Assembly: GCA_964016885.1 (NCBI GenBank) | Contig: OZ024742.1 | Coordinates: 259,966,001 to 260,030,000, forward strand | DNA length: 64,000 bases | Source of the DNA: Eledone cirrhosa | Taxonomy: Eukaryota | Direction of reading: 5' to 3' | Part shown: positions 17,958 to 49,415 of the stretch, piece by piece | Layout: every line of letters starts with the position of its first letter | Position numbering within the stretch: the stretch's first letter is position 1 | Position numbers and translations under genes: made by a program | Notes under the pieces: generated by a model | Told to the model about the DNA's origin: nothing | What the model saw: the letters and a program-made list of their open reading frames with translations, nothing else | The model's database searches: none

Positions 17958-18147
17958 GGTACGTTATACCGGGTTGAATCGGAGGTAACCACAGTAAGTA
18001 AGGTACTCAATACATAGCAGAGTATAAAAGTTTTAATATAGATGAGATTCTACAGGACTAGAACTGTTTCATTCTTTAGAAATCATCAGGGATTCCTGAT
18101 GATTTCTAAAGAATGAAACAGTTCTAGTCCTGTAGAATCTCATCTAT
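17958..18147 (-). mobile_element. Penelope-like pLTR fragment, family 1, with fold-back palindrome 18038-18147
   Basis: 53-bp perfect arms with a 4-nt loop, hammerhead core, embedded in (TA)n; homologous to the islands at 20521 and 49241. Confidence 0.7.
18089..18141 (+). ncRNA. Type I hammerhead ribozyme motif (family 1)
   Basis: GGGATTC-CTGATGA-tttctaaagaat-GAAA-CAG ttctagtc CTG-TA-GAATCTC: stem I 7 bp, stem III ACAG/CTGT, GUA cleavage triplet; stem II weak. Confidence 0.75.
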
Positions 18148-18506
18148 CTATCTATATATATATTTATATATATATATATATATATATATATATATATATA
18201 TATGTGTGTGTGTGTGCGTGTGTGTGTGTATGTATATATGTATGTGTATATATATATATATGTATGTATATATATATGCGTGCTTATATATATATATGTA
18301 TAAACGTGGTAGAAATTTGTAAAAAAAAATGTCTACAAATTTCATATTTGACGACACAATATATATATATATATAAATATATATATATATATATATATAT
18401 ATATATATATATATATATATATATATATATATTATATATATATTATATATATATATATATAAAGAGAAATAGGATTTCGCCTCAAGCAGAGCTTTATACA
18501 ATATGT

Positions 18507-18696
18507 ATAAATATTTCGTATCTCCAAAGAAATACGGTTTTAGCAAGCCATAGCTATGCAAATACCGGGGGGCTAACGCCCTCTGGTGATGACCCCCTTG
18601 CTTCTGCTGGACATCACCAGAGGGCGTTAGTCCCCCGGTATTTGCATAGCTATGGCTTGCTAAAACCGTATTTCTTTGGAGATACGAAATATTTAT
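18507..18696. repeat. Long inverted repeat (85-bp arms, 20-nt spacer) inside (TA)n
   Basis: 18507-18591 is the reverse complement of 18612-18696 with about one mismatch. Confidence 0.93.
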
Positions 18697-20520
18697 GCAT
18701 ATATATATATATATATATATATATATATATATATATATATATATATATATATATATAATACATATATATATAGGTGTGTGTAGGTTTATGTCGAGTATAT
18801 GTGTGTGTATCTGTGTATCTGTGGGAGTATGCGTATATATATGAAGCGTTGAAGTGGTTGTTGTTGAAGCGGATGATAAACACGACAAATACAATACTTC
18901 AGCAAAAAGGAAAAAGAATATGATTACTTCGAATCATAAAAGTATAAAGTTTAATGGTAGCACTCGCAAATGAATACAGTGTTTGTAAAAAAGCTTATGC
19001 GTTGTCTACATGAAGAGGCAGATAATTCTGTGTGTGGTTGAAGTGCTGATGCAAGAATTGCTGTCGAGCCTTTGTCGACAGGGCCGAAGTTTTTTGCTAA
19101 GTGCTACATCTCGCTTCTTGCCTGAGCAATTCAAAATGATGCTTCTCTCCCGAGGAACAAAAGTCGAATTATCTAAAGAAAAACATATTTCATTTAACCT
19201 CAAGCTAGCCAGCCAGCCTCTCCAGACTACAAGCACCAACCGAGAGAAATAGCAGCCAGATGTCATTCAGGAATCAGTATGTACGAAGATATTTCGCTAC
19301 ATTAGTTCCCCATCCAGATCCATGCGGGAGCAGCGATCAACAACAAAAGAAGTAACAAAATGGCAGAACACGACTTTAAAAAAATTGTTGGGGATAGAAA
19401 TTTATGGTAGCTTTAGTTATATGGAGCCATGAGTCGCTCTACATATATTGAAAGAAAAACAAAGTGCATTCCGCAGTGAGTTGGGAATATGTGACTAGAT
19501 TGATGTAAAGCTATCGGCACTGTATGCAATTGCAAGTAGCTTATGGCTACCCATTCGTTTAAATTAATATATATATATATATATATATATATATATATAT
19601 ATATATATATATACATATATATATATATATATACATATATATATACACATATATATACATATATATATACACATATATATACATATATATATACATATAT
19701 ATATATATATGTATATATATGTGTATATATATGTATATATATATATGTATATATATATGTATATATATATGTATATATGTATATATATATATGTATATAT
19801 ATATATATATATATATACATATATATATACATATATATATACATATATATATACATATATATATATATATATATATATATATATATATATATATATATAT
19901 ATATATATATATATATATATATATATATATATATGTACATATATATGTATATATATATATTTAAATATATATATATATATATATATATGTACATATATAC
20001 ATATATATATATATATATATATATATATACATATATATATATATATATATATATATATATATATATATATATATATATATATATATATATATATATATGT
20101 GTGTGTGTATATATATAATCGCTATTAGCTTTCTCCGATTATGTATTATATATATATATATATATATATATATATATATATATATATATATATATATATA
20201 TATATATACATACATATATATATAAATATATACACATAAGTATAAATATATATACATATATATATATATTTAAATACATACATGTAAATATATATATATA
20301 TATATATATATATATATATATATATATATATATATATATATATATATATATATATGTATGTATATGTATATATATATATATAATCGCTATTAGCTTTCTC
20401 CGATTATGTATTTATATATATATATATATATATATATATATATACGTACGTGTATATATACAAACACACACACACACATACATTTATATATATGTGTGTG
20501 TGTGTGTGTGTGTGTGTGAG

Positions 20521-20712
20521 AGTCTTGGGTTCAATCGGGTGGTAACCGCAGTAAGTGAGGTACTCAATATATCAGTAGAGTGTAAACATCAAATTTAATA
20601 TAGAAATGGTTTCTACAGGACTTGAACTGTTTCATTGGAAGTAAATCATCAGTCTTTCCTGGTGATTTCCATTGAATGAAACAGTTCTAGTCCTGTAGAA
20701 GCCATTTCTATA
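20521..20712 (-). mobile_element. Family 1 pLTR fold-back island, diverged arms, degenerate hammerhead cores
   Basis: Same ggtaacc.cagtaagt.aggtactcaata block and gaaacagttc.agtcctgtagaa; the + core is mutated to CTGGTGA. Confidence 0.7.
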
Positions 20713-46489: not shown

Positions 46490-46625
46490 CTACAGCTGAG
46501 TAAACTGGAGCAATGTGAAATAAAGTGTCTTGCTCAAGGAAACAACACATCACCCGGTCTGAGAATTGAACTCACAACCTTTCGATTGCAAGGCCAATGC
46601 TCTAGCCACTGAGCCATGTGCCTCC
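46490..46625 (-). mobile_element. tRNA-derived SINE head
   Basis: gtgtcttgctcaagga.acaac...gaattgaactcacaacc...tagccactgagccat (reverse A/B boxes). Confidence 0.75.
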
Positions 46626-48164
46626 ATGAGGTTCATTATTTTCACTCATTTCAACAGTAACAATAGTTTTGACTAATGAAAACAAATGTCAAGAGGAAAA
46701 TACTTGTTACAACTTGAAGAAACAGCAAGATTAAGTCTGGCAATTAAAACAAAGTGTGGACAAATTCATTAAACGTTCATGGAAACGCTATCAAGTTTAC
46801 TTTAGCAAACAGAAAGAGAATGTGTGTCACAAAGAAATCCACTTGATGTATCCTGCTATTGTTGTCTTAGATAAAATGTTTTATTTTAAGACAAGCTTTC
46901 CATGACAACACCTAATACTGGCAGAAATTTTCCCCAACTTCACAAGATAAATGTCTTGTGAAGTTCTCTCGCTCTCTCTCTCTCTCTCTCACTCTCTCTC
47001 TCTCTCTCTCTCTCTCTCACTCTCTTCTCCCTCCTTTTTCTTCTCTGTCTCCTCTTCCTTCTTTCTCTTTTTTTTCTCTTATATATATATATATTCGTAT
47101 ATGTATATATATAGTTCAAGAATAAATGAGACAAACACAGAAAGGCAATAACAAAATCTTATTAAGTTCACACTTGGGAATAAAGATAAAGAAAAGAAGA
47201 AGAAAATAAATGTCTCAATGTATTGGACAAAAGTCTTTCATCAGAAAAGAGTGAAGTTCAAAGAAAGAGAGAAGGTTGGAGAACTGGAGGTTGGTAGGTT
47301 GCAGAGAGAAAATAAAAAAAACTATTTTTTAAGATGGGTGAGGAGGGCAGGCAAGTAGTCTAGATGCAGGAGGTGGGGGAGTGTCCAGGTGTATCATTGG
47401 CAATGTTACGTGTGTGCAAATGGAGTGCATTTTGTCGGTGTACATCATTTATCCTTTGGGGAGTGTGTTTTGTGTATCATTGATGAAAGTGTGCATGCAT
47501 ATATTTCTATATGCATGTGTGTCCGAAATTTTTATGTATTTTTATGTCTGTGTATGTTTATATGTATGAGTGTGGGTGTGGGTATGTTTATGTGTGTGTA
47601 TATTTATATGTATGAATGTGGGTATGTTTATATGTGTGTATGTTTATATGTGTGGCTGTGGGTATGTTTACATGTGTGTATGTTTATATGTATGAGTGTG
47701 GGTGTGGGTATGTTTATGTGTGTATACACATGTGTTTGTGAATTTTTTATGTATTTTTATGTGTACATGTATGTACACATTTATGTGTAAGTATGCTTAT
47801 GTAGGAATGTGTGGGGGTGTTTATAGGTGTTATCAGTGTGGGGGTGTTTATAGGTGTTATCAGTGTGTGTGTGTGTGTTTGGGTGAGATATTAGTTTGTG
47901 TATGTGAGTGTGTTTATGCATGTGTGTGCATAAGCTTGTATAACTGTCTGTATCCCCGTGTCTGGTAGAATCCAAGGTTGAAATTGAAGTATACAATGGA
48001 ATGGGTGTGTGGGGGTCAATGTTGTGTCATTCCAGGAAGTGGCTGGAGTGGGTAGAGTGGCCTTGTGCAGCACACTAAGAAATTGGTATGTAGTATATAT
48101 CACAGAAGGACGGGGTGAAGAGGTAGAGTAGTTATAAGGGTCAGGTGATCTGTTGTGCCTGTTT

Positions 48165-48705
48165 GTGGTGGTGGTGGTGGTGGTGGTGTTAGTGGTCTTC
48201 ACTGTCGTGGTCGTCAATGTCGTTGTGTCGGTGGTGGTGTTGGTGGCGGTGGTGGTGCTGGTGCTGGTGCTGGCACTGGTGGTGGTGGTGGTGGTGGTGG
48301 TGGTGTAGGCGGTGGTGGAGGTGGTGCTTGTAGTGGTGTTGATGGTGGTGCTGGTGGCAGCGCTGCTGATGGTGCTGGTGGTCGTTGTTGTAGTGGTGGT
48401 AGTGGTAGTGGTGGTGGTGTTGGTGGCGGTGGTGATGCTGGTGCTGGTGCTGGCACTGGTGGTAGTGGTGGTGGCAGTTGTGGTGGTGGTGGCAGTGGTG
48501 CTTGTGGTGCTTGTAGTGGTGTTGATGGTGGTGCTGCTGCTGCTGCTGCTGATGGTGCTGCTGGTGCTGGTGGTGCTGGTGGTCGTTGTTGTGGTGGTGG
48601 TAGTGGTATTGGTGGCGGTAGTGGTAGTGGTGGTGGTGCTGGTGCTGGTCATCATTGTCATGGTGGTGGCGGTGGTGCTGGTCTTTGTCATTGTTGTCGT
48701 CATGG
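48165..48705. repeat. (GGT)n-derived low-complexity tract with an internal duplication of about 180 bp
   Basis: Degenerate GGT/GCT triplets; block repeated at about 48232 and 48412. Confidence 0.85.
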
Positions 48706-49240
48706 CTGTGTGTGTACCGAGAGTATAGTAGTGTTGGTGTTGTGTTAGTTGGCCATGTTAGTATAGTTAGTTGGTCAATAAATTAGTAGTGTTAATATAA
48801 TTAAATTCATATTGGTGTAACTAATTAATTAGTTGTATTGGTTAATGTGTGATTTTGTATCTATGTGTGTTAGTGTGTCTATGTAGTCATGTGAGTGGGT
48901 GTGTTTATGAAGATGGTCATAGGTGGTTGGGGTAGTGCATGAGTGTTAGTGTGAGAATGGATAGGAGGTGGGTACTAGGAAAGAGTGGAATATAGGAAAA
49001 GGGATCTTATGAATTATCAAAGCACTAGATGATTTGAAATTTAAAATGTGAGAATCCCAAATGCAGAAAATAACTCAGCTAACAGCTACTATTAGCAGCT
49101 ACTGCCCACTTTTTTCAGTTTCTTGGGGTATTTTACCCACCTTCTCAGCTATTTTTATAGCAGTTGACTGTTGTTAAAGTTATTTTCTGCATTTGGGTTT
49201 CCCACATTTTCAAATTATATATATATATATATATGTATAT

Positions 49241-49415
49241 CCCAGGTTCAATCGGGGGTAACCACAGTAAGTAAGGTACTCAATACATAGCAGAGTATAA
49301 ATATTTAATATAGAAATGGCTTCTACAGGACTTGAACTGTTTCATTCGAAGGAAATCATCCTGATGATTTCCTTCAAATGAAACAGTTCTAGTCCTATAG
49401 AAGCCATTTCTATAT
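49241..49415 (-). mobile_element. Third family 1 pLTR fold-back island
   Basis: Palindrome 49308-49415 centred at catc|ct|gatg, in (TA)n. Confidence 0.75.

Follow-up and report, generated by a model that had tools for sequence, protein, structure and literature searches.

Penelope-like retroelements (PLEs) of the Hydra clade carry hammerhead ribozymes (HHRs) in their pseudo-long terminal repeats (pLTRs), target (TA)n and have one-sided tails, and the published set includes an octopus member, listed in the supplement as Hydra-1_Obim with both (TA)n preference and an HHR (PMC8557442; this and the other papers on related elements are cited for their passages on hammerheads, tails and insertion). 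The one-sided tail is described in PMC3846280 as well, where self-priming on an antisense template is proposed for inverted PLE insertions. HHRs with a palindromic, dimer-type stem III cleave poorly in vitro (PMC4209133), and whether PLE hammerheads cut in vivo, and why, is treated as an open question in PMC8557442, PMC4209133, and PMC11167929. The DNA analyzed here is a 64,000-nucleotide stretch of the Eledone cirrhosa genome (contig OZ024742.1, positions 259,966,001 to 260,030,000; hereafter the window) in which hammerhead motifs stand next to (TA)n runs. Comparison of its sequence with the described elements leaves us highly confident in reading these motifs as type-I hammerheads from the pLTRs of PLEs of the Hydra clade and of Neptune/Nematis type, left behind as truncated (TA)n stubs.

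A structure-aware descriptor of the type-I hammerhead (CUGANGA, stem II, GAAA, stem III, NUH, and a stem I of at least 4 bp) matched the window eight times, compared with a mean of 0.02-0.08 in 150 shuffles of each kind, and when an extra base was tolerated after A9 it gave nine intact motifs, four on the plus and five on the minus strand, compared with 0.11 in dinucleotide shuffles (maximum 1). Each of the nine has CUGANGA, GAAA, and NUH arranged around helices I-III, and similar counts were not obtained from shuffled sequence (means of 0.02-0.11), a check that the preliminary description of this DNA had proposed. The eight complete cores listed in that description were all recovered; its coordinates are the outer ends of stem I, and the CUGANGA boxes themselves lie at 18096+, 30614-, 30720+, 31156-, 33834-, 33941+, 36428- (where an additional nucleotide follows A9), and 44593+. 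The ninth intact core, at 29734-, had been overlooked. The degenerate or half cores reported at 20630-20700, 22995, 26990, 27190, 37199, and 49360 are present, those at 22995 and 26990 being truncated family E copies, and a further degenerate core was found at 22634+. Several sequence families do occur, as had been claimed, but they comprise about nine lineages instead of about five, and the statement that their stems differ completely is too strong, as B and C have a common stem I and one whole-genome pattern, and F is related to G. The core itself changes across families, with U3-A8 in 8 of the 10 full-length family E cores (UUGANAA in 8/10) versus C3-G8 elsewhere. Stem III is 5 bp long in family E, whereas in B, C, I, and F it is palindromic or near-palindromic and of the dimer type, as it is in six of the nine window motifs (four of B, one each of I and C). 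The copies found in the window are as follows, fold-backs being listed without a strand.

17958..18152: family A fold-back, long-tail arm on the minus strand and short arm on the plus strand.
18089-18141, plus: intact type-I HHR of family A, cut after 18134, U.U at 10.1/11.1.
20520..20722: family A fold-back with degenerate cores.
22625..22794, plus: family G stub whose core, CTAATGA at 22634, is degenerate and whose long tail has the hairpin motif.
22996..23045, plus: family E short arm with GAAA, stem III, GUC site, and the 3' strand of stem I; 5' half missing, truncated in stem II.
23115..23235, plus: family H, tail only.
26875..27032: family E fold-back, junction just 5' of GAAA, long tail on the minus strand.
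27067..27300, minus: family H stub, 3' half of the HHR intact, 5' core degenerate.
29043..29257, plus: family D tail fragment without HHR.
29630..29860, minus: family F stub; its HHR (core 29734, cut after 29689) is intact.
30429..30819: family B fold-back with a pair of intact HHRs (30614- and 30720+) and its long tail on the minus strand.
30969..31260: family C fold-back with an intact HHR (31156-) belonging to the HHR clade of B.
33735..34126: family B fold-back, likewise with a pair of intact HHRs (33834- and 33941+), its long tail on the plus strand.
36187..36972, minus: family D copy with a GIY-YIG C-terminal fragment (36894-36697), 3' untranslated region (UTR), HHR 36428- (cut after 36394), and long tail.
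36868-36972: inverted short tail of family D, within the 36187..36972 copy.
37084..37714, minus: an older copy of family D in which the core, near 37199-37235, is degenerate; endonuclease (EN) fragment 37669-37559.
44588..44697, plus: family I stub with an intact HHR (44593+, cut after 44637) and a short tail that runs into (TA)14.
49236..49416: family A fold-back, junction within the core, 5' strand of stem I missing.

Apart from these copies, a 184-bp fold-back without an intact core adjoins (TA)n at 18462-18698 and by eye resembles the 3' flank of the hammerhead family at L133, and palindromes centered on a (TA)n run lie at 23539-23714, 33384-33503, and 36899-37157, among them tail-to-tail family D ends.

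A full-length element with an intact 799-aa open reading frame (ORF; L093:1993-4389) has family B as its pLTR, and at L095 an inverted pLTR is followed by the arrangement pLTR-ORF-pLTR of the same family. The ORF contains RLRWI, SDKTNN, YRDDG, CNCPAKNKC (a CxCX5C linker), CNLC (CxxC), and CLH (CxH), and when set against section 11 and the supplement alignments of PMC8557442 it shows the RWK, DKT, CxCX5C, and CxxC plus CxH features of the Hydra clade, with no CCHH. Other characters of that clade are likewise present: a single ORF with a reverse transcriptase (RT) followed by a C-terminal GIY-YIG-like EN (the 799 aa of family B, and partial ORFs in A, E, and I), and pLTRs with an HHR, an inverted 5' copy, and a one-sided tail (L095 and the fold-backs tallied below). 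One Hydra ORF lies upstream of family A in 2 of 7 fetched loci (L344/L345), the Hydra EN lies ~0.8-1.3 kb upstream of family E in 6/10 loci, and a Hydra EN fragment lies 1.3 kb upstream of family I in 1/30 loci (L277). Families C, G, and H have a common tail hairpin, and family C also falls within the HHR clade of B, but no Hydra ORF could be linked to these families. A homologue search returned 13 proteins at 33-38% identity, all without informative names.

Family D hammerheads stand on both flanks of a 1,229-aa ORF with DKSG, YVDD, a CX4CxxC linker (CIDKKCITC), and a CCHH-type GIY-YIG domain that is found by Pfam at its cut-off (PF01541), and a family D EN fragment also lies inside the window. 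Thus the CX2-5CxxC linker, C-terminal CCHH GIY-YIG, and DKG-like motif of Neptune/Nematis elements are all found in this family, whose RT motifs also have the style that we take to be that of Neptune. A second intact Neptune/Nematis-type ORF (L343:5529-9179; 1,217 codons from stop to stop) is 65% identical to that of family D and has an Asn-rich insert. With ORFs linked to A, B, D, E, and I, the earlier suggestion of a community of (TA)n-associated, ribozyme-bearing retroelements is borne out, except that this is a genome-wide condition and not a local one. Two other assignments were considered and set aside: Naiad PLEs have an N-terminal EN and no canonical HHR, whereas here the EN lies at the C-terminus and the HHRs have the canonical form, and non-LTR retrozymes do not describe the window copies, as the window holds no tandem head-to-tail non-coding HHR units.

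The (TA)n association described at the outset holds and is directional. A (TA)6 run begins 30-207 nt 3' of the cut site in 9/9 intact window motifs, as expected for Hydra-clade insertion in (TA)n, and among genome-sample motifs a TA run lies within 250 nt on the 3' side in 52/73 and on the 5' side in 22/73, with null rates at random positions of 0.14 and 0.23. That sample was made up of 80 stretches of 10 kb, spaced at fixed steps over 18 chromosomes (799,600 bases of a 3.0-Gb genome) and contained 81 intact motifs, or 101/Mb (bootstrap 66-141) and 6.5 per 64 kb, compared with 0-3 in 12 shuffles. Four tandem-array loci contribute 24 of the 81, leaving 57 without them. Tandem, retrozyme-like HHR arrays were observed at L116, L181, L184, L146, and L344, with units of about 310, 482, and 466 bp. 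At the sampled density nine or more motifs are expected per 64 kb with a probability of 0.29, and per 30 kb with a probability of 0.06, so that the window with its nine motifs is not the hot-spot it had been called; the local cluster tracks TA content (19% versus 5%), as do the loci in general (Spearman 0.47).

Extrapolation of the sampled density gives roughly 3x10^5 intact hammerheads in the genome, a figure good to about twofold because calibration of the sample against whole-genome counts gave 17 versus 21.8 expected in one case and 22 versus 10.6 in the other. The density of 101/Mb omits family E, whose stem II exceeds the length limit of the scan, and a U3-A8 scan of the sample accordingly found 0 family E cores. 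Whole-genome exact matches provide floors: 81,692 for the B/C-clade pattern with both core halves (leaving aside stem II pairing in each copy) and, with the 3' half of family E as the pattern, 39,585, with reversed-pattern controls of 0 for both. An Rfam search of the window gave 0 matches at gathering thresholds, and no hammerhead appeared among the 150 listed of 273 weak Rfam matches, which were microRNA-type noise. Because Rfam and Pfam are blind to the stubs, ~100 motifs/Mb would make them a large and readily overlooked fraction of the genome, and some may be hidden among the 893 "unclassified SINE" (short interspersed element) families of the octopus annotation tabulated in PMC13282606.

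The anatomy of the stubs is regular. In every family examined the 3' ends fall at two fixed points (E +20/+97, D +171/+228, C about +50/+135, and A +15-28/+80-89; family B was left out of this tally, its reference holding a TA run), and these ends adjoin TA in 54/62 copies of E, 21/30 of A, 21/31 of D, and 18/21 of C. In fold-backs a long tail is always paired with a short one, in 39/39 cases from 88 sampled or flanking loci and the window and in 30/30 loci with the family A junction, or 69/69 combined, and at the family A loci the long tail is found on either arm (23:7). In these loci the two arms agree at a loop variant in 25 of the 26 usable cases, compared with a permutation mean of 11.2 (4 of the 30 were dropped for indels). 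An RCTC-loop-GAGY-RCY hairpin occurs in 8/8 window tails examined (A, B, C, E, G, and H) but has no match in the family I reference; in B, C, and E the RCTC-loop-GAGY element sits 5-9 nt beyond the short end, and in the 5' pLTR of family B a second one follows 7 nt beyond the long end in 2 of 3 copies (L092 and L095), while L348 also has two. At the other end, most copies stop at -36 to -46 (A) or -30 to -45 (E) from the cut, that is, within the hammerhead, which explains the half cores.

A number of results weigh against the assignment to these PLEs or against how it is elaborated below. Pfam finds no match in the Hydra ORF (799 aa, L093:1993-4389), and for that reason Hydra membership rests on motif comparison with PMC8557442; family D likewise is assigned to the Neptune/Nematis type by its motifs. 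No parent ORF of family C, F, G, or H was found in the searched loci. The helices of family E are paired in 90.6% of cells, with compensatory change not above that in shuffles, and minimum free energy folding of the isolated family A and B motifs did not give the hammerhead. Finally, the concordance between arms is equally compatible with one RNA, with two sister RNAs, and with later gene conversion.

Long and short tails together with shared variants fit a single template on which both target ends prime at two internal start sites, as described for the element PAc (PMC11167929). A likely mechanism is that the enzyme of the element cuts the TA run and that the RNA end is then reverse-transcribed from both DNA ends to give the stub. 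The two target ends would prime at two start sites of one RNA molecule, or of sister RNAs from one locus, each lying 5-9 nt before an RCTC-loop-GAGY hairpin, and both cDNAs would mostly stop early, often in the hammerhead helices, before being joined at microhomologies. Most templates would be uncut, though a small share of those of family E, likely 1-2%, may have self-cleaved beforehand, and on these both cDNAs would run off at the cut site and gain untemplated bases. Pure snap-back from the long-tail cDNA was rejected, given that the long tail occurs on either arm of the same junction (23:7). The strict tail rule, the identity of the arms, and the twin hairpins constrain how inverted PLE insertions form, and the stubs themselves are probably mostly inert passengers.

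Run-off on cleaved RNA with untemplated additions predicts that both arms end at the cut site with filler between them, and this is what a subset of family E resembles. Short fold-backs of this family gave 698 matches, and in a hand count of 99 distinct loci among 100 matches listed, the long arm starts at the first base after the GUC (H17) in 54, at +2 in 6, further 3' or unclearly in 29, and further 5' in 10. A non-C filler base adjoins 33 of the 54 cut-site starts (2 possibly through CpG decay), and for the other 21 a start at 0 and one at -1 look alike. Across the genome, 561 strand matches, or about 280 loci, have both arms reaching the site and no more than 8 nt between them, including a minority with one arm 3 nt beyond the site, whereas only 3 loci (6 strand matches) have both arms extending 2 nt or more beyond it. 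The rule of one long and one short tail is kept in 16/16 inspected cut-site loci. From the genome-wide counts this class makes up roughly 1-2% of family E, and its rarity is also seen in the 0.93-Mb sample, flanks, and window, where no alignment starts at the cut site in E (0/62), A (0/30), or C (0/21) and the nearest family D starts are at +4 and +6. The pile-up suggests that family E records self-cleavage in vivo. We lean toward the broader proposition, with considerable reservation, that these ~280 insertions, from a family with a natural U3-A8 core, are a germ-line fossil record of self-cleavage in which cut RNA, copied from both target ends, was still integration-competent and the HHR limits copy length instead of enabling transposition, in a genome whose ~3x10^5 intact hammerheads would exceed any published count found.

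The alternative that survives best, which we regard as plausible though rather unlikely, is that the pile-up reflects RT pausing at the run of four G or at the base of stem III and not cleavage. Among the tested families, E alone has GGGG directly after the cut site and E alone has a clean pile-up, although this also fits a structural explanation because E has a 5-bp stem III and B, C, I, and F have the dimer type; the 5-bp stem is predicted to be able to fold as a monomer, unlike those of B, D, and I. The other families also count toward a pause: family D, as a footprint control, gave 1 match, away from the site, 8/36 family B cases are compatible but ambiguous with 24/36 at the stem III palindrome, and family A has mostly microhomology junctions and is confounded as a control. 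Two G-run-free controls matched no loci. For PAc, the RNA-seq results in PMC11167929 have no reads ending at the cut site, and uncut RNA is the dominant substrate. Several other features of the data count against a pause: the starts peak at the first base after H17 (54/99 versus 6 at +2), the two arms end at an identical base and differ in their filler from copy to copy, and the non-C neighbor in 33/54 indicates that an unpaired C17 was left uncopied, an outcome not predicted by a block at stem III. Self-cleavage remains our preferred explanation of the family E ends, and the pile-up singles out one family and one nucleotide at which in vivo cleavage by a PLE hammerhead becomes testable. A literature search for a cut-site footprint, twin hairpins, or an octopus HHR census found no report, most subscription papers being beyond its reach.

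It is improbable that the palindromic stubs replicate as a non-autonomous element, either a fold-back mini-element or a retrozyme, instead of being by-products of single insertions. The one odd family A junction, that of the fold-back at 17958..18152, recurs exactly at 163 genomic places, the two family B fold-backs of the window have a common junction and a common arm-specific variant, and tandem HHR arrays exist elsewhere in the genome, all of which such replication would accommodate. A fixed palindrome, however, would not be expected to carry the long tail on one arm in some family A copies and on the other in the rest, never on both, and its inheritance would not give private variants common to both arms in 25/26 loci; junction positions also vary widely in B, C, and E.

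The idea that the region is intronic, with sense copies cutting host pre-mRNA or serving as co-opted regulators, is very improbable: although B and C arms transcribed alone are predicted to fold stem I with a probability of 0.5-0.85 and short host exons may have been missed, no host exon was found at 14.2-49.9 kb (Pfam scan of 150 of 263 filtered ORFs, no cut-off reached), the intact motifs show no strand bias, their density is near the genome average, PLE hammerheads are described as having low in vitro activity (PMC4209133) and depending on protein (PMC11167929), stem III is of the dimer type in six of the nine motifs, and six lie in fold-backs, where the hammerhead fold is predicted to be blocked (stem I probability 0.0). 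Host pre-mRNA cleavage in the window, as raised in the preliminary description, is unlikely.

The remainder of the window contains other repeats. Positions 1-13452 and 14 kb of upstream flank (L104/L105) are occupied by a 24-bp tandem repeat of about 27.5 kb that is open as Thr-rich TTITATVA units, with a reading frame of 4,515 codons, one frame change near -585, and a further 4,682 codons that end at a stop after 13452; it may be either a giant mucin-like exon or a satellite lacking stops by chance. Next to it, at 13452-14141, is an ITDDDVA repeat. A 175-bp SINE-like repeat is present in about a dozen copies, some of them in tandem, at 16015-16215, 27619-28731, 35743-35869, 61517-61938, and 63173-63997, and minisatellite arrays with 21-bp and 40-bp units lie at 39447-42903 and 59220-60343.

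Of the described systems, the Hydra clade (Craig et al. 2021, PMC8557442) corresponds to these elements in its RWK-like, DKT, CxCX5C, and CxxC/CxH motifs, its single ORF, and its canonical HHR near the 3' end, as well as in (TA)n insertion, an inverted 5'-truncated copy, and the one-sided tail, and its HHR table too has U.U at 10.1/11.1, as in family A, and an extra base after A9, as in D. That account gives "a small number" of non-cnidarian families, whereas here there are many, with 60,359 first-look candidates from an EN query of the genome and a rough count of 27 HHR clusters in 0.8 Mb, not all of them Hydra, and the Hydra tails given there are 30-40 nt, compared with about 60-90 nt here behind 3' UTRs of 0.8-2.8 kb. 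The minimal hammerheads of metazoan PLEs (Cervera and de la Pena 2014, PMC4209133) similarly have a palindromic stem III, an unpaired base after position 9, and a U3-A8 covariant core, and occur as opposite-strand pairs 100-700 bp apart and mostly as solitary truncated copies, though at thousands per genome, compared with the 81,692 exact matches for one clade pattern here. Family E differs from them in joining U3-A8 with a full 5-bp stem III, and the passages on insertions in that paper report no cut-site footprint. The Poseidon element PAc of Anolis (Frangieh et al. 2024, PMC11167929) belongs to a different clade but also cuts and extends both strands at AT-rich targets, has two internal RT start sites that set the tail, and has an ORF start in or near the pLTR; its start-site signal is an AC-rich stem-loop in place of the RCTC-loop-GAGY hairpin, and it has no reads at the HHR cut site, where family E insertions pile up. 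Metazoan non-LTR retrozymes (Cervera and de la Pena 2020, PMC7229834; Li et al. bioRxiv 10.64898/2026.07.22.740005) resemble these sequences in type-I HHRs and high copy number, with the 126,247 of axolotl being the highest published count found, but they consist of tandem 170-400-nt units, and the window copies are stubs arranged head to head and linked to coding PLEs. PLE ends that carry an HHR and lie in (TA)n are known biology, to which this genome adds new members at very high abundance.

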